From positions 75,336-139,335 of the IMG/VR virus record IMGVR_UViG_3300044712_002452: 64,000 nt of DNA. One strand, given 5' to 3'. The stretch comes from a virus (lineage: Duplodnaviria; Heunggongvirae; Uroviricota; Caudoviricetes). Positions 204-61,958 of this stretch are shown here, piece after piece. A program made the translations under genes and the position numbers. The first letter of the stretch is position 1. The number at the start of each line of letters is the position of its first letter. The notes beneath the pieces were generated by a model, which was not told the origin of the DNA, did no database searches, and was given only the letters and a program-made list of their open reading frames with translations.

Positions 204-965
204 TTAATTTTTCATTTTTAACAGATGCCTATGAACACCGGTTACTTGTGTATAAAGGTCTTTTAAAGAACCCGTGTTATCTATGTACAAATCAAATCTC
301 AAATGATCAATAGCTGTCTCGGATTCATGCTTTTGAGCATATTGATCACCGATGTTGCGATTGACCCGAAGCGTGAAGCTATTTTTTCGCTTTTTTACCG
401 CTTCGTATTCATTGGGAAAACGTAAATCCGAAATTATCCAATTAGGAAAATCACAATTAGCGTAATCAAAGTCATTTTCCGTATAGGATACTCTTTTTGA
501 AGGATTCAGGGCTAAGTATTGAGCAAACAATACATTCACCCAGGCGTCTTGATGCAAGTGATTCCGAATGGCATCAGTGCCCAGCTTTTGCAAGAATTCC
601 CGGTAGGTCATATTGCGCTTTTTTTCAAAAATTTTACCGGGAATTACGCGAAGCTCATCTGGGATATCCCATACTTCAGGTAAACTGGCTTTTTTGAATT
701 CCTGAGATTCAAAGCAAGATTCATCCACATTGAGCATCAGGGCCGCCACTTTTTTTACACCCGCCGCAAATTTTTTGATTACGAACGGGTTTTCTAAAGT
801 GCTATACGGGTCAATTCCCGTTTCCATTCGTTGTAAAGCATCCTGGTAGTCTTCATAACTGGGTTTTAAATTCAGATCAGGATTACTCAAATTAAAAAGA
901 TATTGTAGCATAGATGCCACGGTGTCTTTTCCGGATCCCATATATCCGGATATCGCAATAATCAT
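204..965 (-). CDS. P-loop kinase, deoxynucleoside-monophosphate kinase-like
   Basis: N-terminal Walker A, IAISGYMGSGKDT, resembles the T4 gp1 dNMP kinase start. 253 aa. Adjacent to dCTP deaminase. Confidence 0.55.
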   Translation of the reverse strand: MIIAISGYMGSGKDTVASMLQYLFNLSNPDLNLKPSYEDYQDALQRMETGIDPYSTLENPFVIKKFAAGVKKVAALMLNVDESCFESQEFKKASLPEVWDIPDELRVIPGKIFEKKRNMTYREFLQKLGTDAIRNHLHQDAWVNVLFAQYLALNPSKRVSYTENDFDYANCDFPNWIISDLRFPNEYEAVKKRKNSFTLRVNRNIGDQYAQKHESETAIDHLRFDLYIDNTGSLKDLYTQVTGVHRHLLKMKN

Positions 966-969
966 AGGT

Positions 970-1530
970 TTAATTTTTGAAGTTTAGATGCATTTTACTT
1001 TCTTGAACGCCCGTTTGATTGTGGTATTTACTACCGGTTTTTTGATCGTAGCTTTCTTCAATAACGCCTTCGACCCGAGCAAATTCCAGTTGGCAGATTT
1101 TCATGTTAGGGTACACTTTAATTGGAACGGTGGCCACCAATTCAAGCACTAATGAACCGGTAAAGCCGGGGTCAATAAAACCCGCCGTAACATGCACAAA
1201 TAGACCTAATCTACCCAATGAACTTTTTCCTTCTACTTTGGCCCGTATATTACCTTTTACGCCAATTTTTTCGTTGCAGGCGTAGAGATACACGTTACCG
1301 GGCTCCAGTATATACCCTTCGTCTGGAATAACGAATTCTTTACAAATATTTGGCTTCCGTGGATCCAGATGAGGTATTTTATCATCATTTTTTTGACGCA
1401 TGTAAACTTTAAATGCGGGCGCCAGGGTTAGATCTACGCTGCAGGGATTGATGTGGTCCAGATTTAAACCGTCAATAATGATATTGCCGGCCATGATTTC
1501 TTTTTTGATAATGGAGTCTGATAATATCAT
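970..1530 (-). CDS. dcd: dCTP deaminase (Dcd/dUTPase superfamily)
   Basis: 186 aa beginning MILSD.II. The GKSSLGRLG..H...GFIDPGF pattern is typical of Dcd. Confidence 0.7.
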   Translation of the reverse strand: MILSDSIIKKEIMAGNIIIDGLNLDHINPCSVDLTLAPAFKVYMRQKNDDKIPHLDPRKPNICKEFVIPDEGYILEPGNVYLYACNEKIGVKGNIRAKVEGKSSLGRLGLFVHVTAGFIDPGFTGSLVLELVATVPIKVYPNMKICQLEFARVEGVIEESYDQKTGSKYHNQTGVQESKMHLNFKN

Positions 1531-2679: not shown

Positions 2680-3105
2680 TTACAACGTTTTCAGTCTTTC
2701 CAATACATCTTTCCCAGTATGTCCATCAAAAGGATATTTTGCTGATTCGACTTCGGGTATTTTGAACAAATCCCAATCTTTTGCTTCGTAATGGTTAGAT
2801 ATTTGCCCTGTTGGAAGCATAGCGACAACAATAAACCACCCACCACCAAAACAAAGTTCACCGTCATGGTGTTTCCAAGACTTGTGTACATCATACATAG
2901 GTTGTTCTATGCTCCCATCAGGTTGATTGGTTCTGAATTTTGCCCACTCGTTGAATAGTGCAGCATTGTACACTTTTCTAAACTCATATAATTCGTCAAA
3001 AGTGTGATACCCGTCTGAAATTTTACCTTTCAAACCACCAACGCCTAAGCTATCGACTTCTCTTTGAACATTTGCCAAAAGTGTTTCTCTTAAATATTCA
3101 AGCAT
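2680..3105 (-). CDS. hypothetical protein
   Basis: 141 aa ORF. Confidence 0.45.
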   Translation of the reverse strand: MLEYLRETLLANVQREVDSLGVGGLKGKISDGYHTFDELYEFRKVYNAALFNEWAKFRTNQPDGSIEQPMYDVHKSWKHHDGELCFGGGWFIVVAMLPTGQISNHYEAKDWDLFKIPEVESAKYPFDGHTGKDVLERLKTL

Positions 3106-4457: not shown

Positions 4458-4766
4458 CTATTTTGTTTTAAACTGAGAAAAATCGAGTGTAGGGTTTGCA
4501 ATTTCTATTTCACTCTCACTTAAACGCCATTTATCTCCATTTTCATTTTGACACAAAAAACTGTTTTGTAATTCATCACAGTCAATTATTTTCACAATTT
4601 CTTCTATATCAAACCCATGTGCGCTTATACAATCTGTTACAATTACTATCATTCCGATTTCAAATTTTTTCCTTTTCTCATTCACCAATTCCAGTAGCCG
4701 ACTGAAAGATATTTGCTCACTCTCATACTCATTCAGCCATTGTCTTAGTTGTGTTGCTGTTATCAT
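4458..4766 (-). CDS. hypothetical protein (MITATQL N-terminus)
   Basis: ATG at 4766 overlaps the TGA stop of the upstream small gene (ATGA). The -1 frame stays open upstream to 4832. Confidence 0.45.
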   Translation of the reverse strand: MITATQLRQWLNEYESEQISFSRLLELVNEKRKKFEIGMIVIVTDCISAHGFDIEEIVKIIDCDELQNSFLCQNENGDKWRLSESEIEIANPTLDFSQFKTK

Positions 4767-5002
4767 TCGGATAATAGTTTGTTGTTTTGCAATATTTTTT
4801 TTCTTTCCCATCCTCCATTTGGCCTTTGACATTTACTACATTTGCATTTGCCTATAACAAATCTGCCGCATCCAATAGCGTATGTATAGCCTGCATCAAT
4901 TCTTTGTTGATACCAACCTTTATCTATCCAAGATTGCAATGTTGATGGCTTTACTATTCTTGTAGTACCTGAATAATTAACTAGTTGTGTTGCTGTTATC
5001 AT
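4746..5002 (-). repeat. 21-bp direct repeats TAGTTGTGTTGCTGTTATCAT (4746-4766 and 4982-5002) flanking the small Cys-rich gene
   Basis: Exact 21/21 match. Each copy encodes MITATQL at the start of a gene. Confidence 0.7.
4763..5002 (-). CDS. small Cys-rich zinc-ribbon-like protein, paralog A
   Basis: C-terminus WIDKGWYQQRIDAGYTYAIGCGRFVIGKCKCSKCQRPNGGWERKK. About 80% identical to the protein at 41815..42045. Start is either MITATQL (5002) or MKK (5026). Confidence 0.5.
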   Translation of the reverse strand: MITATQLVNYSGTTRIVKPSTLQSWIDKGWYQQRIDAGYTYAIGCGRFVIGKCKCSKCQRPNGGWERKKILQNNKLLSE

Positions 5003-5528
5003 TTGCTTTAGGTTTGATTTTTTCATTTACTTTTTTGATTATCGCCTCACCGAGATACTTTCGATATATCTCGGCTGTGGCTTGTCGGTTGGCATCCGCA
5101 GCCGCAGCAGCCCTCGCAGCCCACGAAGCAGCACTCGCAGCACTCGCAGTAGCCCACGAAGCAGCACTCGCAGCCCTCGCAGCCCAATCAGCAGCCGCAG
5201 TAGCCATCGTAGCCCCCCACGAAGCAGCACTCGCAGCAGCCATCGCCTCTTGCAATTCACGCTCTGTCGCTTTTCCTTCACCGTATGCTATGGCTGTATC
5301 TACGGCTTTTAGACTTCGTTCATCTTTCATTAGGTGTCTAACCGTGTTCGCAGCGTGTCCTGCGGCTAAGCATCTTAGTTGCATTGGCAGTTCTAATTTA
5401 TCTGCCAACCACCCCATCCAGTATCCTCTCTCGCACTCTTGTACTGCTTGCTCTATGGTTTTTTCGCCCACCCATTTACGGGCTTCGGAACAGGCGTTTA
5501 ATTCGGTTAGTAATTGTTGTAAATTCAT
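4977..5528 (-). CDS. hypothetical protein with Ala/Ser/Trp-rich tandem repeat
   Basis: 183 aa. Residues about 95-150 are imperfect AASAASWA repeats, encoded by 33-bp tandem DNA repeats at about 5100-5250. Confidence 0.5.
   Translation of the reverse strand: MNLQQLLTELNACSEARKWVGEKTIEQAVQECERGYWMGWLADKLELPMQLRCLAAGHAANTVRHLMKDERSLKAVDTAIAYGEGKATERELQEAMAAASAASWGATMATAAADWAARAASAASWATASAASAASWAARAAAAADANRQATAEIYRKYLGEAIIKKVNEKIKPKANDNSNTTS
5100..5250 (-). repeat. imperfect 33-bp tandem repeats (about 4 units) inside CDS 4977..5528
   Basis: Unit CACGAAGCAGCACTCGCAGC(A/C)CTCGCAG(T/C)AGCC starts at about 5122, 5155, 5185 and 5219. Confidence 0.6.
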
Positions 5529-6388: not shown

Positions 6389-6820
6389 TCATTTCGTTTT
6401 ATTTAGTTGGTTTAAAATATGATTTCTGCATATTTCTACAACACGTTTACAGTCAACTATATCAAACATGCCTATATGACAATATTTTTCATTTATACCC
6501 ATTTCTTTTGATAGCCATAAATAGGCTTTTTTACGATTGGTGACATCGGGTATATATTGAGGCCAAATACGATTAATTAATGATGTTTTGGCAATTTGGT
6601 CAAAGTAATAATGAGCTTCTTTTTTAGCTTCTCGCAGTTCTTTATTGGCCACAATTCCTAAAGCTGTATCGGTTCCTTTATGAACTCCAACGTAAGCATC
6701 ACAACTTCGGCACAAATAAATCATTCCATAGCTTTTACCGTATATGCAACTACTATCCACGTATTCTGTTGGTCGGTTGCAATAATGGCATATTTTTCCA
6801 CTGATGATATCGGAGTTCAC
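6389..6820 (-). CDS. zinc-ribbon protein
   Basis: CHYCNRP...CRSCDAY, two CxxC pairs. Confidence 0.45.
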   Translation of the reverse strand: MNSDIISGKICHYCNRPTEYVDSSCIYGKSYGMIYLCRSCDAYVGVHKGTDTALGIVANKELREAKKEAHYYFDQIAKTSLINRIWPQYIPDVTNRKKAYLWLSKEMGINEKYCHIGMFDIVDCKRVVEICRNHILNQLNKTK

Positions 6821-6873: not shown

Positions 6874-7092
6874 TTAAGCCGTTGCTGCTTTTACGGCCCA
6901 CATTGCGGCTTCTTCATAAGCTGTTTGCGCCAATGATGCTAACCGACCGTCTTTTTCCTTCAATTCTTCGCAAAGGTTGATTAGTTCAGCACTTTTTTGC
7001 TTAATCTTGTCAACAACTCCATCCGAAGAAGGATTGAAAGTTGTTCTTACTCTTTGCTCGCCGATACTGTTGGCTTTAATTTTATCGCTCAT
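6874..7092 (-). CDS. hypothetical small protein
   Basis: 72 aa ORF followed (in transcript direction) by a strong terminator hairpin at 6846-6866. Confidence 0.4.
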   Translation of the reverse strand: MSDKIKANSIGEQRVRTTFNPSSDGVVDKIKQKSAELINLCEELKEKDGRLASLAQTAYEEAAMWAVKAATA

Positions 7093-32612: not shown

Positions 32613-32634
32613 ACAACACCATTAAAAAACTCCG

Positions 32635-33143
32635 TGGAGCCGGGGGGAGTCGAACCCCCGTCTTGATAAGAATCCCCATTAGCATACTCTTACGTGCGTA
32701 GTACTGAAGTGTCCACCGCGCTACCTTCCGGCTTTGCTTTGTCTGTATTCTTCTGCACCGTAGTTAGGGCTGCTGGTTAAAGCAACCTCCACCACCAACT
32801 TTTGAGAAAAGCTGGAAAACGAATCGGAGTTAGCCTATCCGATAACCAGATTGTATGCCGAATCTCACGGCGCAACTTCGGTACTATTAGTTTGGCGTAC
32901 GCCACTCTCCCTACCAATCTGTATATAGTTTTGCGACTTTCTGTTCCACCACTGTCGCCGCGGGATCGCAAATTAAGCTGCTACAGCTTCATTCTGGAAG
33001 ATGCTTGCCAAGATGGCTTCACCTTCAGCGATGCGGGAAATCTTTGATTTGCCGTTTATAGAATTCCATGGATTGCAGGCACATGGCGCCCTTACACGAT
33101 GCTAACGTTGATCACGAATCAATCAAATTCCAAAGTCGGCCCC
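32635..33143 (-). ncRNA. ssrA: tmRNA (ssrA)
   Basis: On the minus strand the 5' end GGGGCCGACUUUGGAAUUUGAUUGAUUCGUG parallels the E. coli tmRNA 5' end. The 3' end GACGGGGGUUCGACUCCCCCCGGCUCCA has a T-arm plus acceptor, and the 7-bp acceptor pairs GGGGCCG/CGGCUCC. An internal reading frame ends ...QNEAVAA-UAA, like YALAA. A rho-independent terminator follows at 32588-32612. Length about 509 nt; 5' end is less certain. Confidence 0.6.
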
Positions 33144-35050: not shown

Positions 35051-35542
35051 TTACAGCCGTCCTTCATCGGCAAAGCTGAAATAACTTGATTCTGTTAGAA
35101 TGATATGATCCAGCAATTGAATATCCAGTAATTTACCGGCGTCTTTGATTTTTGAAGTCAGTGATTGGTCGGCTTGACTGGGTGATAAATTTCCGCTGGG
35201 GTGATTGTGACAAATAGCCAAAGCAGTAGCGTTACAAAGCAATGCTTGTGCGTACAGCAATCGGGGATCCATTACGGTACCTGTGACGCCACCGGTGCTT
35301 AAGCAAGTGTATCCAACCATTGTATTTGCCCGATTGAAAAATATAGCATAAGCGCATTCCTGGATATTAATTAGATCCTGATCGAAAATCATTCTAAAAA
35401 GCTCAACTAAAAAAGGGCTTGTGTTAACCGTAGACAAATTGCCGTATTTTGCAAATTCTTCCATGAAGCAATTCTCTGATTTTAAAGAAAGCTTTTTGAA
35501 TAACTTGGATTCCAGCATAGATTCATCGAATATTAAAGTGCT
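35051..35542 (-). CDS. RadC-like JAB/MPN domain protein
   Basis: JAMM motif HNHPSGNLSPSQAD. Start is probably the internal Met (ORF track 35617). Confidence 0.65.
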   Translation of the reverse strand, partial: STLIFDESMLESKLFKKLSLKSENCFMEEFAKYGNLSTVNTSPFLVELFRMIFDQDLINIQECAYAIFFNRANTMVGYTCLSTGGVTGTVMDPRLLYAQALLCNATALAICHNHPSGNLSPSQADQSLTSKIKDAGKLLDIQLLDHIILTESSYFSFADEGRL

Positions 35543-35625
35543 CATAATTGATTGATTTGTTGTAAAAAAAAGAGCCTGCAGAGCATAATTGCTGGCAGGC
35601 TCAAACACCAAAACCAAAATAGATA

Positions 35626-39334: not shown

Positions 39335-39518
39335 TACCGAGGACAGGATTCGAACCTGTATGCCGCACTTCTAGCATTTATCATTTCTGCCGACTTTCCA
39401 ATCCTAAGTAGGTCAGAATCTAGTTGTCCCACTGACTAATGGCTTTCATCAGATTTTTAATGCTTAGGGTATGGGGTGCTGCTGAATCTCATGCGTCTAC
39501 CAATTTCGCCACCTCGGC
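39335..39518 (-). tRNA. tRNA-Leu-like gene interrupted by an about 120-nt insertion
   Basis: 5' part GCCGAGGUGGCGAAAUUGGUAGACGCAUGAGAUUCAG matches the canonical tRNA-Leu start (acceptor, D-arm, CAG in the anticodon-loop position). 3' part ACAGGUUCGAAUCCUGUCCUCGGUA is a T-arm plus the acceptor CCUCGGU, complementary to GCCGAGG. The two parts are 184 nt apart. Confidence 0.4.
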
Positions 39519-39668: not shown

Positions 39669-40187
39669 TTAAAAATCATGCGGTGTCAGCAACTTAATCC
39701 AATTATCCAATAATCTGCAGATTTCAGTTTTTGTTGCCTCATCTGTCAGGTGATGCTTTTGAAACTTTTCATATTTATCTAATAGATTTTTTGGAGCTTG
39801 TTTGTAAGTAATATGCTCATAGTAAATTAAAGTACTCTTCAAATTTCCGGTTCTTACCGAGTTCATCATACACGCTAAATCGTTTGAAATACTTTTATAT
39901 TTTTTTGAATTATTATCAAAAACTAAATAAGGTATATCATAAAGCGGTACCGATTCTTTATCAATTTTCCAAAGCTCTTTAAGTTTTTCGTCTGGTACAA
40001 ATCCCAGAATAGCAGCTCCGCCTAAACAAGCTGTACATGCCAAATTACCCTTCAGACTTAACCATGTAAGCATATAAAACTTAAAGCCGTGTTTGTCCAA
40101 CCGTTTAACGTCTTGTTTTACGGATTCCAGTAGTTCACATATGGTAAACTCTCCAATATTATCTAAAGTCATAATTCTTTGTGCCAT
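39669..40187 (-). CDS. hypothetical protein (MAQRIMTLDNIGEF N-terminus)
   Basis: 172 aa. Its first about 16 codons and 20-nt upstream region are duplicated at 39600-39668. Confidence 0.5.
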   Translation of the reverse strand: MAQRIMTLDNIGEFTICELLESVKQDVKRLDKHGFKFYMLTWLSLKGNLACTACLGGAAILGFVPDEKLKELWKIDKESVPLYDIPYLVFDNNSKKYKSISNDLACMMNSVRTGNLKSTLIYYEHITYKQAPKNLLDKYEKFQKHHLTDEATKTEICRLLDNWIKLLTPHDF

Positions 40188-40264
40188 GTAATTTGGTTTT
40201 GGTGTAAAAAAAAATATGAAACAAATGAGTTCTGTACAGTTTGCACAGAACTCATTGAAAACGA

Positions 40265-40468
40265 TCAGTTTTCAGATTCCCAATAACAAACAGCTTCATC
40301 TTTTTTAAATGTGAAATTTTTCACAAGATAAAAACCTCTGTAGGGGCTTTTATCTTCATTTGGCAATCTGATAGACAAATTGGTATTATCTGAAAATCCG
40401 TTACTAAAAGTGAAATTGGTTTCACTTTTCACGATCATTCCAGTTGATAATTGAGCATAGTATGCCAT
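40265..40468 (-). CDS. hypothetical small protein
   Basis: 67 aa. Terminator hairpin at 40227-40257. Confidence 0.4.
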   Translation of the reverse strand: MAYYAQLSTGMIVKSETNFTFSNGFSDNTNLSIRLPNEDKSPYRGFYLVKNFTFKKDEAVCYWESEN

Positions 40469-40479
40469 AACGGTTGGTT

Positions 40480-40836
40480 TTAAAATTCTGGTTTATCGAC
40501 ACTTTCTTGATATTGTTTTCTGACCAATTCAGCCATATTCAATTTCAAGCGATCATTTTCTTTTTTCAACTCTTCGATTCGTTTTAACGGTTCGGCATTT
40601 GCGCCGGCGCCTGCCCATACCGAAACAATTTCTACTTTCTCATCGGTATCTACGTTGATAAAACCAATGTGTGTGATCATGGGTCGGTTTTCATCAGCTA
40701 CTTTTAAAATCATTTTAAACAAATCCACCAAAGGATTCAATATATCCGTTCTGGTGAGCGATGGGTTTTTGAAAAAATAGATTCCGATAGAAATTGCATT
40801 GACTATACGCCAATAAAAGTTTTTGATTTTCTGCAT
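40480..40836 (-). CDS. hypothetical protein
   Basis: 118 aa with a C-terminal coiled coil. Confidence 0.45.
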   Translation of the reverse strand: MQKIKNFYWRIVNAISIGIYFFKNPSLTRTDILNPLVDLFKMILKVADENRPMITHIGFINVDTDEKVEIVSVWAGAGANAEPLKRIEELKKENDRLKLNMAELVRKQYQESVDKPEF

Positions 40837-40861
40837 GACGGTTGATTTGTGAATTTTGGTT

Positions 40862-41065
40862 TTAAGTTTTCCATTTGATGCGGAAGATGGCGGTGTCTTG
40901 TTTGTCTATGCCAGGCCGTAGAATATTTGGGCACATTACAACTGCACCGATAGATGCATAATTACTAACCATTATGTCTTGTATCTCCCTTTCTTCGCCT
41001 TTGTATGTTTCTGTATCGTCTATTATTCGATACCCCGGCTTCATGTCTTGTATTGGGTAGCTCAT
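40862..41065 (-). CDS. hypothetical small protein
   Basis: 67 aa ORF. Confidence 0.35.
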   Translation of the reverse strand: MSYPIQDMKPGYRIIDDTETYKGEEREIQDIMVSNYASIGAVVMCPNILRPGIDKQDTAIFRIKWKT

Positions 41066-41077
41066 GGGTGGTAGTTT

Positions 41078-41821
41078 TTAACTTTTATCGATCACAATGA
41101 TTTTACCCCCTACTAAAGTTCCACTGTTTTTGAAAGCGCCTTTTTCGATATCAATAACGGTGGCGTTTAAATCGATCATTGAACTTCTGAAATCAATTTG
41201 CTTTTTTTGACTTCCAAAAGTCCAACTTTCAGAAGTAATACAAACTAACCGACCGCCATCGGCAAGACAGTTATACATCATTTTAAGATGATCAATGTCT
41301 TGGTTATTGGTGAAAGGCGGATTAGCAATGATTTTGGTGTACTTTTTACCGGCATGCTGCAAAAAATCCGCACCGATTAAGTTGAAACGCAATCCGCTTT
41401 TATTCAAAACGATTTGGTTTACATCCATCAGTTCGTAACAATCGGGTACGACATCACAAACTTTATTGATTGCTTTTATGATGGCTCCTTGGCCGGCGCT
41501 GGGTTCCAAAATGGTATCCGTAGGCTTCAAATCCGCTAATTGAACCAATTGGTCCGCCAAAAAATCGGGTGTAGCAAAAAATTGAAACTCTTTTTTCAAA
41601 TTTCTTTGTTCGCCATTGGCTATTTGGGCCAGTAAATCCGAAGGATCTTTTTGAAATACGAATCCAGCGGTTTTCCCACCTTTCCATTTACCCCCAATAA
41701 GTTCTAAAGATTTAGCCACTTCCAGGTATAACTTGCGGTCTAATTGACCCGCAGGTAGTTTTACGATAGATCCGTCTACAGTACAATTTTGCAGTACGGC
41801 TTCTTTTGTGGTCATCAGCAT
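41078..41821 (-). CDS. DNA N6-adenine methyltransferase (orphan, gamma-type motif order)
   Basis: AdoMet motif I ILEPSAGQGAI, then catalytic motif IV IIANPPF. Start MLMTTKE overlaps the stop of the upstream small gene. The -1 frame is open upstream to 41920. Confidence 0.7.
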   Translation of the reverse strand: MLMTTKEAVLQNCTVDGSIVKLPAGQLDRKLYLEVAKSLELIGGKWKGGKTAGFVFQKDPSDLLAQIANGEQRNLKKEFQFFATPDFLADQLVQLADLKPTDTILEPSAGQGAIIKAINKVCDVVPDCYELMDVNQIVLNKSGLRFNLIGADFLQHAGKKYTKIIANPPFTNNQDIDHLKMMYNCLADGGRLVCITSESWTFGSQKKQIDFRSSMIDLNATVIDIEKGAFKNSGTLVGGKIIVIDKS

Positions 41822-42045
41822 GTAATTTTGTTGTTTTGCAATACTTTTTTTCTTTCCCAGCCACCATTGGGCCGAGAGCACCGGCTGCAGGCACACGGAT
41901 CGATCGTAAACCGACCGCATCCCAGGTTATATCGATAGCCGGCGTCAATGCGCTGTTGGTACCATCCTTTGTCAATCCAAGATTGAAGGGTACATGGTTT
42001 TAGAACGCGGGTGACGCCGGCGTAATGAGTGGGAGAGTTCATCAT
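41815..42045 (-). CDS. small Cys-rich zinc-ribbon-like protein, paralog B
   Basis: WIDKGWYQQRIDAGYRYNLGCGRFTIDPCACSRCSRPNGGWERKK. Paralog of 4763..5002. Confidence 0.5.
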   Translation of the reverse strand: MMNSPTHYAGVTRVLKPCTLQSWIDKGWYQQRIDAGYRYNLGCGRFTIDPCACSRCSRPNGGWERKKVLQNNKITC

Positions 42046-42344
42046 TGTTCAAGGCTTTGGTTTTCTAAAACGGTTTGCTCTGACTCATTTTGGCTCATGT
42101 CAGAAAGCGTTTGAAAACCCATTCCACAAACCATATGAAAGCCGGTTTCATCTTCAATCACATCGCCTACGCTGGTACTACGGCATGGATTTTCCAAATT
42201 CCAGTGTAATACAAAATTTTGACTCATACGGAAAGCGTCATCTAATGATTCAGCTTCTACGGTTCCCACAAATTCACGGGGTTGATCAGCGACAGGCATA
42301 AAACGGTTTTCACCGGTGGCGTGCCAAATACGATAAGTTTTCAT
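42042..42344 (-). CDS. hypothetical protein
   Basis: 100 aa ORF. Confidence 0.4.
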   Translation of the reverse strand: MKTYRIWHATGENRFMPVADQPREFVGTVEAESLDDAFRMSQNFVLHWNLENPCRSTSVGDVIEDETGFHMVCGMGFQTLSDMSQNESEQTVLENQSLEQ

Positions 42345-42577
42345 GATTGGTGTTTTAGTGATTCAAAAAATGATTTTCCTGAAAAATTGTAATCCTTCCA
42401 GGTCCATTTTGTCTCACCGTTTATTTCAGTTTTCATGGGCAATTTGACGGTGTTGCTATATGTGCTTATCATGATAATATCGTTTCCGTCATCGAGCAAT
42501 TTTTCAACCATTTTTATAGGAAAACTACCCTGAAAAAGCATTATTGAACCGTCGGTTCGATTTAAAATCTGGTACAT
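42341..42577 (-). CDS. hypothetical small protein
   Basis: 78 aa ORF. Confidence 0.4.
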   Translation of the reverse strand: MYQILNRTDGSIMLFQGSFPIKMVEKLLDDGNDIIMISTYSNTVKLPMKTEINGETKWTWKDYNFSGKSFFESLKHQS

Positions 42578-42591
42578 AGTGAGAGTTTAGG

Positions 42592-43083
42592 TTAATACCG
42601 AAAACTGGTAAAATGGATGATTCCGCCGGTTGTTACTTTTTGTCCTACTTTAAACCAATCGGCAAAGTCGTGTAATGTGAGACCGTCGTTTTTTGCGATT
42701 TCGATCGGAGATACGTAGACTACATTTCGCGTAATTTCAGGATAAATAGATATTTTATCATGGCTCATCCCGTATTCGTCGATTCTAACCCGTTGAATTC
42801 CGATGTCGTGCTCTTTTGTTAAGCGCTCAATTTCGAACTGAGGTGAATTATACGGAGCGCCCGACCACTGGCGGAGGGATATTTCGGCCAGGCCTTTTCG
42901 CACTTCAATAATGCGTTTCCGCCAAAGTTCATAGTTTTCCCGGATCGTGTGAATTTTTTCACGGCGCGCAATTTTCTCCGCGAAATACGTGGGATTGCCA
43001 GCTTGAGAGTGTTTAGTTGGGAATTTTTTTGATATAATTAGAACAAATGTTTTCATGATTGGTGTTTTAATAGTGAACTCCAC
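42592..43083 (-). CDS. hypothetical protein
   Basis: 163 aa ORF. Confidence 0.45.
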   Translation of the reverse strand: MEFTIKTPIMKTFVLIISKKFPTKHSQAGNPTYFAEKIARREKIHTIRENYELWRKRIIEVRKGLAEISLRQWSGAPYNSPQFEIERLTKEHDIGIQRVRIDEYGMSHDKISIYPEITRNVVYVSPIEIAKNDGLTLHDFADWFKVGQKVTTGGIIHFTSFRY

Positions 43084-43285
43084 GCATTTCTACGCAGAGT
43101 TCACCAAATTATTTAATCGTGGTCATAATAATTACAATCCACAACTGTGTACCCTTGACCCCAAGCTATGTTACAAGCTTGTTTTCTGTTTTGAGCAGAA
43201 ATATCCAACACACACCTTCCATTTGGTGTATAAACACCTACGTTATAAGAATACATTTTGAATGATTTTAATGGTGACGTTATTT

Positions 43286-43612
43286 TTACAATAATTCAGT
43301 TGCGGCGTAACCCATTATTTGATCCAATGAGCCCATTTTGCAAAATCCGTCTTTGAATTGGATAGCAAAATTTTGTGAACCAAAGCGAATAGTGTCTTCA
43401 AATACTACTACTACTTTGTTATCCATATAGCGGGTTCTTGAAAGAACGTTTTCAATTTCTGAAAACACTTTTCTTGGAACACCGACGCATTCCCTGAATT
43501 TCATTTGGGCTGTTTCATATGGAAAATACCCAACGGCATTGAAGCCTGAAAAATTGATAGGTTCTTCAAATTTGATGAAACTCTTTTTTTGCATGATTGC
43601 ACTTAATAGCAT
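43286..43612 (-). CDS. hypothetical protein
   Basis: 108 aa ORF. Confidence 0.4.
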   Translation of the reverse strand: MLLSAIMQKKSFIKFEEPINFSGFNAVGYFPYETAQMKFRECVGVPRKVFSEIENVLSRTRYMDNKVVVVFEDTIRFGSQNFAIQFKDGFCKMGSLDQIMGYAATELL

Positions 43613-43818
43613 AAATCAGTGTTTTAATGGTTAAAAATGATTCCGCGGGCGAAAAAAAAACAGCTATAGATCCGGTGGCTTAACGTGGTGATTACTCAAC
43701 TTGGTAATCACATTTCAAAGAACTAAGCTCTTTCACGCTGTCGATTTGACTATCCGACTTTCAAGGCTCTCGGTTTTATTGAGCCGCTTTACTATAGCTG
43801 TTAAACTGCTCCGATTTC

Positions 43819-44175
43819 TTATTTAGGAAGCCGGCTTTCAATTTGTTCTAGCGTGTAATGATTTATCACTTCGAAAAAGTGGTCGATTTTTTGCTGATCA
43901 TAAAGATTTCGTCCACGGCCAAGCTTGTTTATTTCTTCGGTTATAATCCCGTGTTTTTGATCGATTACAATCCCGTGCGTATGATCAATTTTTTCGATAA
44001 ATGCCGACGCGGCCTTGCGAATTTCGGCGATTTCTGATCCGGCATTCTTTATGTAGTATTGCTTTCCGGAGGTTTTAATTGTTCGCACGGCGCGTTCGAT
44101 CCGATCTTCAATTTCTTCGATGATTTCAGAAGTGCTAAATTCTTCGAGATCGATATCAACATTGATATTTGCCAT
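43819..44175 (-). CDS. hypothetical protein
   Basis: 118 aa ORF. Confidence 0.4.
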   Translation of the reverse strand: MANINVDIDLEEFSTSEIIEEIEDRIERAVRTIKTSGKQYYIKNAGSEIAEIRKAASAFIEKIDHTHGIVIDQKHGIITEEINKLGRGRNLYDQQKIDHFFEVINHYTLEQIESRLPK

Positions 44176-45042: not shown

Positions 45043-45310
45043 CGTCCAGTAGTTTTGATTCGTTTTAATCTGAATATTAATTTCAGACTATATATGATTT
45101 AGCCATATATGCAGCCCCTATAACATGAATAACTCTGCAAATATAGATTTATTTCGGAGATTAAGAAGATACCCGTTTTTTTGTTCCCCCATACACACTC
45201 GCACACGATTGATTGTGAGATTTCTTAGGGGATATGTATGTATGTTCCACGAAATCGTGTGATTTCAGGTTTCAAGATGAGCCGTGGGCGCAGCTTTGGA
45301 AAAAAATAAG

Positions 45311-45345
45311 GGTTTCACGGTGTCTATGTTTTCCGTGAAACCCTT
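45311..45345 (-). terminator. terminator ending the GC-rich island transcript
   Basis: GGGTTTCACGG-tgtctatgttttc-CGTGAAACCC, an 11-bp stem. The minus strand follows with TTATTTTTTTCC. Confidence 0.55.
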
Positions 45346-45608
45346 ATAATCATTGAATAATTGCGAGATGGCACACGCAAGATGAGCCACCAGCGCGGGT
45401 TTAGATAATACTGCGTACTCCTTGTGGGGTTGCGCAGTGGTAAAGTGGCACACGGGATACCCTGAAGATGCGGTACGATGTGCGCACGATAGTTGAGCGA
45501 AGCAATTGCAAGTATGCAATGCTCGCTAATAAAACCCGCCTGCAAGGCTACGCAACGCTGGACGAAGCGTTACGTAGCTTTAGACTTGCTGCGGGGTCCG
45601 ATTGGGCA

Positions 45609-46268
45609 CTATGCGCCGGCTTCGGTAAGCTTTGCCATTGCTTCTTTTTTGGCTTTCAACTCCTGCGCGCGGAGCATTCTTTGCTCCTGCAGGTTCACCT
45701 TGGCTTTGGCTTCGATGTCCACGTTGAATGCGCGGGCTTCAGCCTTGTAGGTGGCGCTGGTTTCCATGGCTGCCATGGCTGCTCTACCGAAGCTCCATTG
45801 ACCTACGACGTCGCCGTTCTTGTTCAGGGTCTGCCCTGTCAAGTAACCGTACAGCTCTTTCTGCGGGAAGCGGTCGTCGTACTTCTGACCCGTTTCAGGG
45901 TTTACGCGACCTTCGGAAACGGCTTTCAATTTGAACACCGTACCCGCCAAGCTGTCGAGCAACGTATCGTCGTCTACGTTCAGCTTGTTGTTCTTCATTC
46001 GCAACGCTGATGCGTGGATGTCGAGCGTCTTGCTCACAATGTTACCGTCAACCACGGCTTCGATTAGAAAGCGCTTGTGGTCTTGATAGCCGGTTTCCAC
46101 GTAAGCGAGAATCTTGAAGCTCTCGACTACGCCTTCTTGGCTGGCATTAGGGTCGGGTGATGACCCTGCGGCTGCGGCGGCTGCTTCTGCAGCTTCCCGG
46201 GCTTTCTTTTGAGCGGCGGTCTCTGCTGCGAATAATTTTCTGACACTGGCTGCTTTTGCTTGTTGCAT
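45609..46268 (-). CDS. hypothetical protein encoded in GC-rich island
   Basis: 219 aa, Ala/Lys-rich termini. Codon usage and GC are clearly higher than in the surrounding genes. ATG at 46268 verified. Confidence 0.5.
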   Translation of the reverse strand: MQQAKAASVRKLFAAETAAQKKAREAAEAAAAAAGSSPDPNASQEGVVESFKILAYVETGYQDHKRFLIEAVVDGNIVSKTLDIHASALRMKNNKLNVDDDTLLDSLAGTVFKLKAVSEGRVNPETGQKYDDRFPQKELYGYLTGQTLNKNGDVVGQWSFGRAAMAAMETSATYKAEARAFNVDIEAKAKVNLQEQRMLRAQELKAKKEAMAKLTEAGA

Positions 46269-60175: not shown

Positions 60176-61801
60176 ATGGCAACTCCCGTTCTTAATAACG
60201 GTATTTTCTTGCGGGAAGTTTCTTACGAAACTACCGCCCATGTGGATTCTTATCACCTCTACAACCTCATCGGGAAAGATGCCATGACGGATCTGGGTCC
60301 GGTAGAGTTGTTTGCCCACGCGCAAAAGGTAGAAATACCTTTGTATCAGATGGCAAGCTTTGGCGGTAAGAATGTCATCATGGTTCAAAACAGTCGTGGT
60401 GAATTCAAATGGGATATTCCCATTCTGCAAGATTTGCCAACGTTCATGGAAGACATCGAACCCGGTAACACCGAAAAGGGTCGTGATGGTAGCACCTTCA
60501 AAGTGAAAGTAAGCCGTCGGGCCTTCTCTCACGGAGATGTGTTTTCTTATGACAAATACAACGGTGTCGAAATTTACATCACCGATGAAGACATCCTGGA
60601 TGGTGGTGATAAAGCCGTGATTTACACGTGTCGCTTGGTCAACAACGACAACGCGAAGTTTCTGGACAACAAGTACATCAAGCATGGTACCAAGTTGTTC
60701 CGTAAGACTTCTGCCAAATCCGGCGAGTACGGTGAGAAGTTCTCTGATTTGGGTAACCAAACGGCCGGACACCGTGAGTACTACAACTATGTAGGGGGTG
60801 CCGAAGCACACTGTCATTTCCATATTTCGTCTAAGGCGGATATGATGGCAAAAGGTGGTTTGCTCAACAATGGCCGGGTGCCGGTAACGGAACTCTGGCG
60901 TTCATTCGACAGCAACTTGGATCCTTCCATCCGCAGCTTGGATGAAATGGCCAAAAAAATGGGTAAGGACTACATGAAAAAGTCTTACGAAAAAGGTACT
61001 CTGGTACGCAATTTCGTGACCACCATCGAATCCAAGTGTATTCAAAAAGTCGCCAACGACATCGAAAGTTACGCGATGTGGGGTCATGGTGGTCGTCTGC
61101 GTCAAGACGGGCCTGATGATTTCCGTTTGAGCGTAGGTCTTTGGAAGCAATTGGATAACGCCTGGAAGAAGAAGTATAACAAAGGTGCTTTCACCATGGA
61201 CTTCTTCAAGGGTGAAATTTTCAACTTCTTCGCAGGTCGCGTAAGTTTTGAAGGTCCGGATCCTAAGCGTAAACTGATCGTTCAAACCGGTATAGCGGGT
61301 ATGCGCGTAGTAAGTGCTGCCATCGAGCGTTATGCATTCGCTTCCAATCTGGTGATGAATGCTACGGAGCTGGGTGCGATCACCGGTAAGGGTATGAACC
61401 TAGACTTCGGTTTTGCGTTCACTTCTTTCACCATTCCGTATCTGGCAAACGTTCAGTTCGTATTGAACCCTGCTTTTGACAGCGTTCATACCAACGATAT
61501 TGAAAACCCGATCATTGACGGTCATCCGCTGAGCTCTTACAGCTTTGTGATCTTTGACGTTACCGATCAAGGTTCTGACAATATCTTCTTGCTCAAATGG
61601 GCGCATGACCATGAATTGAAGTGGTTCTACCAAAATGGTACCATGGACTACATGGGTCGTTCAACCGGATTTGCATCTACCGGCCTGTTCTCAGGTTACA
61701 AGGTGTATATGCAACAAACCATGCCGGCCATTTGGGTTAAAGACCCAACTCGCGTGTTGAAGATCGTGATGACCAATCCGATCACAGGCGGTTCACTGTA
61801 A
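60176..61801 (+). CDS. major capsid protein candidate
   Basis: 541 aa. Highly-expressed-gene codon bias (GGT/CGT/AAG). Followed by the strongest terminator in the window. Confidence 0.55.
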   Translation: MATPVLNNGIFLREVSYETTAHVDSYHLYNLIGKDAMTDLGPVELFAHAQKVEIPLYQMASFGGKNVIMVQNSRGEFKWDIPILQDLPTFMEDIEPGNTEKGRDGSTFKVKVSRRAFSHGDVFSYDKYNGVEIYITDEDILDGGDKAVIYTCRLVNNDNAKFLDNKYIKHGTKLFRKTSAKSGEYGEKFSDLGNQTAGHREYYNYVGGAEAHCHFHISSKADMMAKGGLLNNGRVPVTELWRSFDSNLDPSIRSLDEMAKKMGKDYMKKSYEKGTLVRNFVTTIESKCIQKVANDIESYAMWGHGGRLRQDGPDDFRLSVGLWKQLDNAWKKKYNKGAFTMDFFKGEIFNFFAGRVSFEGPDPKRKLIVQTGIAGMRVVSAAIERYAFASNLVMNATELGAITGKGMNLDFGFAFTSFTIPYLANVQFVLNPAFDSVHTNDIENPIIDGHPLSSYSFVIFDVTDQGSDNIFLLKWAHDHELKWFYQNGTMDYMGRSTGFASTGLFSGYKVYMQQTMPAIWVKDPTRVLKIVMTNPITGGSL

Positions 61802-61854: not shown

Positions 61855-61926
61855 AGCGGGGTAGAGCAGAGGTAGCTCGTTAGGCTCATAACCTAAAGGC
61901 CGGTGGTTCGATCCCATCTCCCGCTA
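61855..61926 (+). tRNA. tRNA-Met (CAT anticodon; elongator or Ile-lysidine type)
   Basis: Cloverleaf: acceptor AGCGGGG/TCCCGCT, D-arm GAGC-AGAGGTA-GCTC, anticodon arm TTAGG-CTCATAA-CCTAA, T-arm GGTGG-TTCGATC-CCATC. Confidence 0.75.
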
Positions 61927-61958
61927 CTGATTCGATAAACCAACACAACCACTTCACT

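Follow-up and report, generated by a model that had tools for sequence, protein, structure and literature searches.

The DNA considered here, a stretch of 64,000 nucleotides (nt; hereafter the window) comprising positions 75,336 to 139,335 of the IMG/VR virus record IMGVR_UViG_3300044712_002452, contains on its minus strand a gene for a small cysteine-rich protein (copy B), which is followed directly by a gene for a stand-alone methyltransferase (Table 1). The TGA of the small open reading frame (ORF) and the ATG of the methylase have one base in common (TGATG), or overlap by 7 nt if translation begins at an ATG at 41821. At 60176..61801, the window encodes a major capsid protein of the crAss-like type (Pfam Crass_capsid, E 2e-24). 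The window is contained with 100% identity in a metagenomic contig of 139 kb (JGI 3300042876 Ga0451577_0000178), and an independent Logan assembly agrees with it at 100% over 5,738 nt; the sequence of copy B is unchanged in the independent assembly. No nucleotide match was found among 50,697 GenBank phage records when positions 40000-44000 were compared with them by blastn.

The start of the methylase was placed at the ATG at 41815 (MTTKEAV), since the resulting protein is 100% identical to the protein P0004 of 245 amino acids (aa) and agrees with the conserved MTTKE N-termini of homologues; upstream of this start, an in-frame stop codon occurs within 9 codons in 47 of 68 viral loci. Both motif sequences given in an initial annotation of this DNA, TILEPSAGQGAII (motif I) and KIIANPPF (motif IV), are present, and EPSAGQG (residues 104-110) and NPPF (165-168) were invariant in 18 and in 27 homologues. 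FQFFATP is found before motif I, as in TaqI and BseCI, and the order FxTP, motif I, NPPF, with no insert between the motifs, is the gamma arrangement. The AlphaFold (AF2) model (predicted local distance difference test, pLDDT, 81.6) consists of alternating beta and alpha elements, which indicates a class I Rossmann fold dependent on S-adenosylmethionine (SAM). Searches with this model by Foldseek yielded type I HsdM, M.BseCI, PacII M, CamA and M.TaqI at E values of 2e-9 to 1e-7. PHROG families of DNA methyltransferases matched the protein at 1e-26 to 1e-31, the best of these matches being internal segments of very large phage proteins. The order of motifs bears out the previous description of a gamma-type methylase; its start is overlapped by the small ORF, as had been noted. 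There is no C-terminal recognition domain, as the chain ends about 77 residues past NPPF and contains there only strands of the catalytic domain (AF2); the N-terminus is formed by a conserved domain of about 70 aa.

The methylase family is very large, with more than 3,600 homologous clusters, almost all of them stand-alone proteins. The best 120 homologues were 71-79% identical, except for one which is the identical protein; almost all had a length of 243-246 aa, and none carried a precomputed Pfam domain. No model passed in an NCBIfam scan of the methylase. Members of the family occur commonly in viral contigs, and one homologue bears the label Bacteroidota. Homologues from cultured phages, which carry methylase annotations, are at most 45% identical (e.g., that of Bacteroides phage BS-TP3); the best match of this kind is from a Bacteroides phage. 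In some homologues, a second methylase of the HsdM-like kind (FTPxxV...DPACGSS) is fused to the protein, and in others the N-terminus is extended by about 75 aa of a different sequence (EHN..L...W.D.Y, without Cys); unusual architectures of this type are represented by the loci L048 and L055 and the proteins P0007, P0051, P0086, P0095 and P0115. In ORFs from 33 to 49 kb of the window, no nuclease, HsdS, HsdR or restriction domain was detected with Pfam, the domains found being a RadC-like JAB domain, Band_7 and a sub-threshold match to a bacterial PH domain, which is in accordance with the earlier remark that no restriction partner is nearby. No neighbour of the methylase, upstream or downstream, was conserved across 68 IMG/VR loci, and no other gene of the window from 34-50 kb recurred beside methylase homologues. 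These results mark the methylase as an orphan gene which is mobile by itself. At two of the loci (L009, L010), a gene resembling Tad2/DUF2829, as judged by eye from the sequence, was noticed 211 nt downstream of the methylase.

The small protein, for which a length of 85 aa had been given, is 76 aa long when translated from its ATG. A BLASTP search of all stop-to-stop ORFs of the window yielded a single relative, copy A (75% identity over 68 aa, E 5e-42), so that the notion of a second copy of a Cys-rich module directly upstream of the methylase was correct. Comparison of the two copies over codons 8-62 showed 27 codons with synonymous differences only, 14 with non-synonymous differences and 14 identical ones, a pattern which implies purifying selection in the frame of the small ORF. 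Together with homologues elsewhere, four invariant Cys residues and a confident AF2 model (mean pLDDT 81.8), this establishes copy B as a real gene. Its exact sequence was not contained in a collection of 15 billion proteins, the Logan annotation has an uncalled gap of 226 nt at its position, and the gene is not annotated in public assemblies; it was probably skipped by gene callers because of its atypical, GC-rich codon usage.

A profile search of 1.84 billion representatives revealed 45 clusters of the small-protein family at 50% identity, and at least 179 clusters were present in a collection at 90% identity. Nearly all members are free-standing proteins of 55-90 aa, and none has a Pfam domain. 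The four Cys (C43, C51, C53, C56; spacing C-x7-C-x-C-x2-C) were invariant in 27 family sequences, within a core that can be written as Y-x-G-t-l-R-I-x-N-x-x-T-L-Q-x-W-i-d-x-G-x-Y-Q...G-Y-x-f-x-x-G-C-G-R-F-x4-C-x-C-x-k-C-r and is followed in many members by an amphipathic helix, L-x2-V-[LI]-x2-N. The proteins are basic (pI 9.5-9.8, net charge about +8). Hints of nucleic acid binding come from the helix motif TLQSWIDKGW of the N-terminus, of which five copies lie outside the catalytic part of a GIY-YIG nuclease (P0153), and from a sub-threshold resemblance of the family to the zinc fingers of eL37 and I-TevI. Scans with Pfam, PHROG and NCBIfam gave nothing for the small protein or its neighbours, tblastn against GenBank phages gave no match, and no structural match was found for the small protein. 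It is probably a zinc-stabilised nucleic-acid-binding protein which acts alone.

In all other loci examined, the Cys gene was surrounded by arrays of small hypothetical phage genes; the methylase was not in any of these loci, and the DNA 3' of the Cys gene (L002-L005, L074-L086) consisted of unrelated genes or non-coding sequence, or else contained a hairpin like that of a terminator. Anti-defence domains were not consistently found beside other members of the family. The only case was a protein (P0134; L087:266-784) which combines, in one reading frame, a family member with a domain like Tad2 (Thoeris anti-defence 2; PF11195, E 2.9e-12). This fusion is present on two contigs and has an internal Met at the domain boundary, which suggests that a stop codon was lost between two adjacent genes.

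The search for the Cys protein near methylases was equally negative, since hmmsearch of six-frame ORFs detected it within 4 kb of the methylase in none of the 68 viral loci from IMG/VR. In the present genome, copy A precedes a gene for a 102-aa protein which is not a methyltransferase. A regulator-enzyme pair of small protein and methylase is not supported, and the dedicated unit of zinc-ribbon protein and methylase proposed in the initial annotation finds no support in the methylase loci or in the unrelated genes which follow the Cys family. The proposed translational coupling is made plausible by the overlap of stop and start codons, but such an overlap is not specific for this pair. Copy B and the methylase are the last members of a chain of four genes (78-aa, 100-aa, 76-aa, methylase) with successive overlaps of 4, 4 and 1 nt, and the genes upstream of copy B are joined by ATGA overlaps at 42341-42344 and 42042-42045. 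Since these genes overlap in the same way, coupling appears as a property of the gene array, and not of the small ORF and the methylase. For the flanking 100-aa and 102-aa proteins, no relatives were found in IMG/VR.

Both copies of the small gene end with TGGGAAAGAAAAAAA[G/A]TATTGCAAAACAACAAA, an A-rich block of 32 nt which has only these two matches in the window and none in 100 shuffles. Neither the block nor any portion of it recurred elsewhere in the window in the manner of a regulatory repeat. Between the copies, codons 63-73 are free of synonymous differences, whereas synonymous sites elsewhere in the gene have almost reached saturation. The tail peptide WERKK[VI]LQNNK had no matches in metagenome and viral contigs when searched with degenerate DNA patterns, which other codon choices may escape; the pattern WIDKGWYQQRIDAGY was likewise without match in the metagenome contigs. 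The core of copy B (codons 1-62; 41860-42045) is a sharp compositional island, with a GC content of 0.548 and a GC content at third codon positions (GC3) of 0.565, as compared to a GC content of 40% for the window and a GC3 of 0.40 +/- 0.06 for 17 long genes of the window, 0.31-0.40 for the genes flanking copy B and 0.19 for the core of copy A. The tails of both copies are AT-rich. The core of copy B thus looks like a foreign, GC-richer allele which was recombined into a resident gene, and the 32-nt tail is best read as a remnant of recombination, shared by recent descent, duplication or gene conversion.

The surroundings of copy A also suggest rearrangement. An exact direct repeat of 21 nt, ATGATAACAGCAACACAACTA, which matches exactly twice in the window and never in shuffles, duplicates the junction between the 183-aa and the 102-aa gene, and the two repeats enclose a unit of 236 nt that holds copy A. 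Both genes are intact, and copy A takes over the first seven codons of the 102-aa gene. This duplication looks like the trace expected of a cassette that was inserted between two genes. Related loci without either copy, which could serve as proof of an insertion, were not found with the 100-aa and 102-aa flanking proteins as queries. The 183-aa ORF upstream is overlapped by long antisense and alternative-frame ORFs.

Table 1. Genes and sequence elements at the two copies of the small cysteine-rich gene; positions are those of the window.
Feature	Position	Strand	Remarks
Copy B, small Cys-rich protein	41815..42045	-	76 aa from ATG; pI 9.5; Cys at 43, 51, 53, 56
Methyltransferase, stand-alone	41078..41815	-	245 aa; FFATP, EPSAGQG (motif I), NPPF (motif IV)
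A-rich 32-nt block GGGAAAGAAAAAAAGTATTGCAAAACAACAAA	41827..41858	-	3' end of copy B; one-base difference from 4778..4809
100-aa gene, function not assigned	42042..42344	-	stop overlaps copy B start (ATGA)
78-aa gene, function not assigned	42341..42577	-	first in chain of four genes with stop/start overlaps
Copy A, small Cys-rich protein	4763..5026	-	87 aa from ATG at 5026; called as 79 aa from Met at 5002 (P0001)
102-aa gene, function not assigned	4458..4766	-	downstream of copy A; start overlaps copy A stop (ATGA)
183-aa ORF	4977-5528	-	upstream of copy A; repetitive Ala/Ser/Trp-rich centre (AASAASWA...), GC 0.50
21-nt direct repeat ATGATAACAGCAACACAACTA, first copy	4982..5002	-	start of copy A (MITATQL) and last codons of 183-aa gene
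21-nt direct repeat ATGATAACAGCAACACAACTA, second copy	4746..4766	-	start (MITATQL) of 102-aa gene

Taken together, we favour, with moderate confidence, the interpretation that two independent mobile genes are neighbours in a compact, coupled accessory operon of a crAss-like phage. The 245-aa protein would most likely carry out SAM-dependent methylation of adenine N6 in the phage's own DNA, thereby blunting restriction by the host, and its N-terminal domain of about 70 aa would probably supply the contact to DNA, given that a conventional recognition domain is missing. The adjacency of small gene and methylase would have arisen from the shuffling of cassettes, each copy of the small gene being situated exactly at a gene junction. 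Translation of the methylase probably proceeds by ordinary termination-reinitiation coupling at TGATG, like that of its neighbours. A recent duplication or gene conversion would have left the 32-nt tail, and the core of copy B would have been replaced later by the GC-richer allele. The arrangement thus appears mostly ordinary, namely an orphan phage methylase beside an unrelated, newly noticed small protein that probably binds zinc. Of the self-regulating anti-restriction methylase envisaged previously, the anti-restriction role is a sensible suggestion from the context of an orphan phage enzyme; self-regulation together with the zinc protein is unsupported.

Several observations weigh against this interpretation. 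In either copy, precisely 11 nt separate the 32-nt block from the ATG that follows, and this shared tail contains nine degenerate codons in a row without synonymous change, which a shared cis function could explain. Given the fusion P0134 and the methylase extensions of about 75 aa, a physical link of a small N-terminal module to an effector is conceivable. With respect to the substrate, the tRNA and rRNA methyltransferases TrmN, RlmL and DIMT1/KsgA were in the same range of Foldseek scores as the DNA enzymes, with TrmN ranking second, so that these scores are compatible with substrates other than DNA; the methylase also remained under the Pfam cut-offs for Eco57I (23.4 bits versus 25.3) and N6_Mtase (20.3 versus 20.4).

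The 32-nt block could instead be a functional cis element which, together with the four-Cys protein, forms a portable module for the control of whichever gene is located behind it. This we regard as unlikely. The block would in such a case either be bound by the protein in the manner of Com of phage Mu, or a low-level -1 frameshift would graft the Cys module onto an effector, i.e., the methylase or, in P0134, the Tad2-like sponge.

The first of these possibilities, a switch in which the four-Cys protein binds the block as mRNA or DNA and activates or represses translation of the following gene (the methylase in the case of copy B and the 102-aa protein in that of copy A, analogous to the activation of mom by Com), is rather improbable. 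Operons of com and mom, and of com-like genes with methylases, could be considered as precedents: com is situated directly upstream of mom in one operon, and homologues of Com precede the N6-adenine methylases Hia5, Hin1523 and Nme1821, which are non-specific, and ORF48 of phage B3 (PMC3299994), while Com itself binds to an RNA hairpin which adjoins a translation-inhibition structure (PMC6483171). The small size, the basic character and the four conserved Cys of the protein would fit such a role, as would the near-identical block at the same distance of 11 nt from the downstream ATG, with overlapping stop and start codons, in both copies. However, none of 27 family members matched the Pfam family of Com zinc ribbons at E <= 1, the hhalign probability against a Mu Com sequence was 0.65%, and the Cys residues differ from those of Com in spacing and position. 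By these three results the small protein was ruled out as a homologue of Com. Moreover, minimum free energy (MFE) folds of 161-nt segments at both junctions contained no stable hairpin that would sequester the start codons. The block and its peptide are missing from all relatives, in which the Cys gene precedes unrelated genes or terminator-like sequences, and the compositional mosaic accounts for the block without a function.

It is also improbable that the methyltransferase modifies RNA or protein, or that it supplies the modification activity of a restriction-modification system, or of another type of defence system, with a nuclease that escaped recognition. A search of the PDB with the single sequence gave only an Erm-type rRNA methyltransferase and MJ0882. 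The profile search was led by MJ0882 (E 1e-7), with 7vru, M.BseCI and M.TaqI at 1e-5 to 1e-4 and Erm/KsgA and HemK alongside, and HemK and Erm/KsgA were found in an NCBIfam search as well. The Pfam scores under the cut-offs for DNA methylases and the lack of a canonical recognition domain point in the same direction, and many neighbouring ORFs are without detectable domain. On the other hand, FxTP, EPSAGQG and NPPF fit DNA enzymes of the gamma type which form N6-methyladenine (m6A), HsdM, M.BseCI, PacII M, CamA and TaqI are among the best structural matches, and the PHROG matches are to DNA methyltransferases. Some homologues are fused to the second, HsdM-like methylase or are contained in very large phage proteins. 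An obligate partner is unlikely, as no neighbour was conserved across the 68 loci.

The initial annotation had considered that the methylase may be reached through frameshift. If a programmed -1 frameshift, or slippage during transcription, took place on A_AAA_AAA, a fraction of ribosomes would join the first 67 residues of the small protein to the downstream protein; we consider this very unlikely. The heptamer is present in the correct zero-frame register at 41851..41845, inside the 32-nt block, with an equivalent site within a run of eight A at 4802..4795, and the -1 frame, which is that of the downstream gene, is open across it in both copies. A shift would yield a fusion of Cys module and methylase of about 324 aa, with the junction GGWERKK-KSIAKQQNYMLMTTK, and a matching fusion at copy A. 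The DNA around the heptamer is unusually conserved between the copies, and natural fusions of modules are known from P0134 and its Tad2-like domain (two contigs) and from the methylases lengthened at the N-terminus by another segment of about 75 aa. As the DNA is shared, however, the openness of the -1 frame at the two sites is not independent evidence, and runs of at least 7 A or T are commonplace in the 64 kb (82 versus about 20 expected). No stimulatory hairpin or pseudoknot follows the heptamer, the A-rich sequence downstream being unstructured, and the sequence past the 32-nt block differs between the copies. Relatives have ERKA instead of ERKK, no run of A, and stops in the -1 frame. A shift would also remove the C-terminal helix which is conserved in the family, and the upstream stop codons in 47 of 68 methylase homologues speak against an entry from the preceding gene. 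What favours the frameshift is thus weak and not conserved in relatives.

That the small ORF is no gene at all and that a methyltransferase ORF of 280 aa is present instead, starting from an ATG at 41920, as the empty interval in public gene calls and the open methylase frame up to 41926 might suggest, can be practically dismissed, because the frame of the small ORF is 75% identical to the copy A protein, with 27 synonymous-only codons, the small protein has homologues in other phages, methylase homologues begin at MTTKE, the protein collection lacks a form of 280 aa, and the missing gene call is accounted for by the atypical GC-rich codon usage.

What remains is a real, unannotated gene, probably overlooked through atypical codon usage, and with it a previously undescribed family of small, basic four-Cys phage proteins which behave as a mobile single-gene cassette and for which no Pfam, PHROG or NCBIfam model exists. 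In addition, the family of 245-aa orphan methyltransferases is very large and highly conserved, but without a curated model; it should be relevant to the evasion of restriction and to the interpretation of methylomes in such phages. A pair of zinc protein and methylase, if true, would be a new Com-like circuit in crAss-like phages, which the evidence does not support.

Some other features of the window may be mentioned. A 72-aa gene with an Acb2/Tad1-hairpin domain (a family of anti-CBASS/anti-Thoeris sponges) is located at 6874-7092 (minus strand), about 2 kb from copy A, and is adjoined by a gene for a DUF3268 protein (6485-6820 as called); a WDGH-domain protein is encoded at 2680-3105. This region may be an anti-defence neighbourhood. 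Genes of nucleotide metabolism, encoding a dNMP kinase (DNMK) and a dCTP deaminase, are found at the left end (204-1530, minus strand), and a RadC-like JAB domain protein is encoded at 35051-35617 (minus strand); these genes may bear on modification or repair of DNA in the phage. Nearly all genes from about 1 to 50 kb are on the minus strand. A scan for sigma-70 promoters was uninformative (17 matches versus 11.7 expected). Downstream of the gene array, an inverted repeat with a stem of 15 bp, AATGAGTTCTGTGCA-AAC-TGTACAGAACTCATT (40224-40256, minus strand), resembles a terminator, but without a clean run of T.

A GC-rich island at 45200-46000 reaches a GC content of 0.56 in this genome of 40% GC and overlaps ORFs at 45468-46010 (plus strand) and 45609-46268 (minus strand), the latter without Pfam match. 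A segment at 32632-33143 (minus strand) matched the full Rfam model for transfer-messenger RNA (tmRNA; RF00023) with 57.1 bits, compared to a gathering threshold of 47 (E 9.6e-20), and was absent from the output of ARAGORN; possibly the phage encodes here a tmRNA that is unusually long (512 nt). An Rfam tRNA match of 184 nt at 39335-39518 (minus strand), covering model positions 1 to 71 with 32.5 bits versus 29, may reflect a tRNA-like gene interrupted by about 110 nt of inserted or intron sequence; otherwise it is a marginal match. The sole tRNA reported by ARAGORN in the window is a tRNA-Met at 61855-61927.

Compared with known systems, the locus shares with com-mom of phage Mu, with the com-like genes at Hia5, Hin1523 and Nme1821, and with ORF47/48 of phage B3 a gene for a four-Cys protein directly upstream of, and in the same orientation as, a modification gene without restriction partner (PMC3299994, PMC6483171). 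The differences are considerable: Com has CxxC-x16-CxxC at its N-terminus, whereas the small protein has C-x7-C-x-C-x2-C in its C-terminal half; the adjacency occurs here in this genome only and is not conserved in relatives of either gene; MFE folds did not reveal a translation-inhibition hairpin; and enzymes of the Hia5 type carry DPPY, in contrast to NPPF with gamma-type order. Known -1 frameshift sites (dnaX with A_AAA_AAG, IS elements, tail-assembly chaperone genes of phages) resemble the locus in having a zero-frame X_XXY_YYZ heptamer and an open -1 frame into the next gene, but differ from it, since here a stimulatory structure is missing, the site is not kept in homologues, and the downstream genes have their own conserved starts. 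The small protein is perhaps reminiscent of the DNA-binding modules (zinc finger and repeat motifs) of free-standing GIY-YIG homing endonucleases of the I-TevI type, in view of the fivefold recurrence of TLQSWIDKGW in P0153 and a weak match of one family member to Pfam I-TevI_ZnF (E 0.1). Its gene resides at gene junctions in the manner of a free-standing mobile gene, with copy A bracketed by the 21-nt duplication. The protein lacks a nuclease domain, however; its matches are either short or below significance, and no structural match was found. The methylase, with its Rossmann fold and FxTP, motif I and NPPF in gamma order, is comparable to the gamma-type m6A methyltransferases M.TaqI, M.BseCI, HsdM and CamA, from which it differs by its length of 245 aa, by a family-specific N-terminal domain of about 70 aa instead of a C-terminal recognition domain, and by scores under the Pfam gathering cut-offs. 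With orphan phage methylases, it shares its location in a phage genome and its independence of an endonuclease partner.

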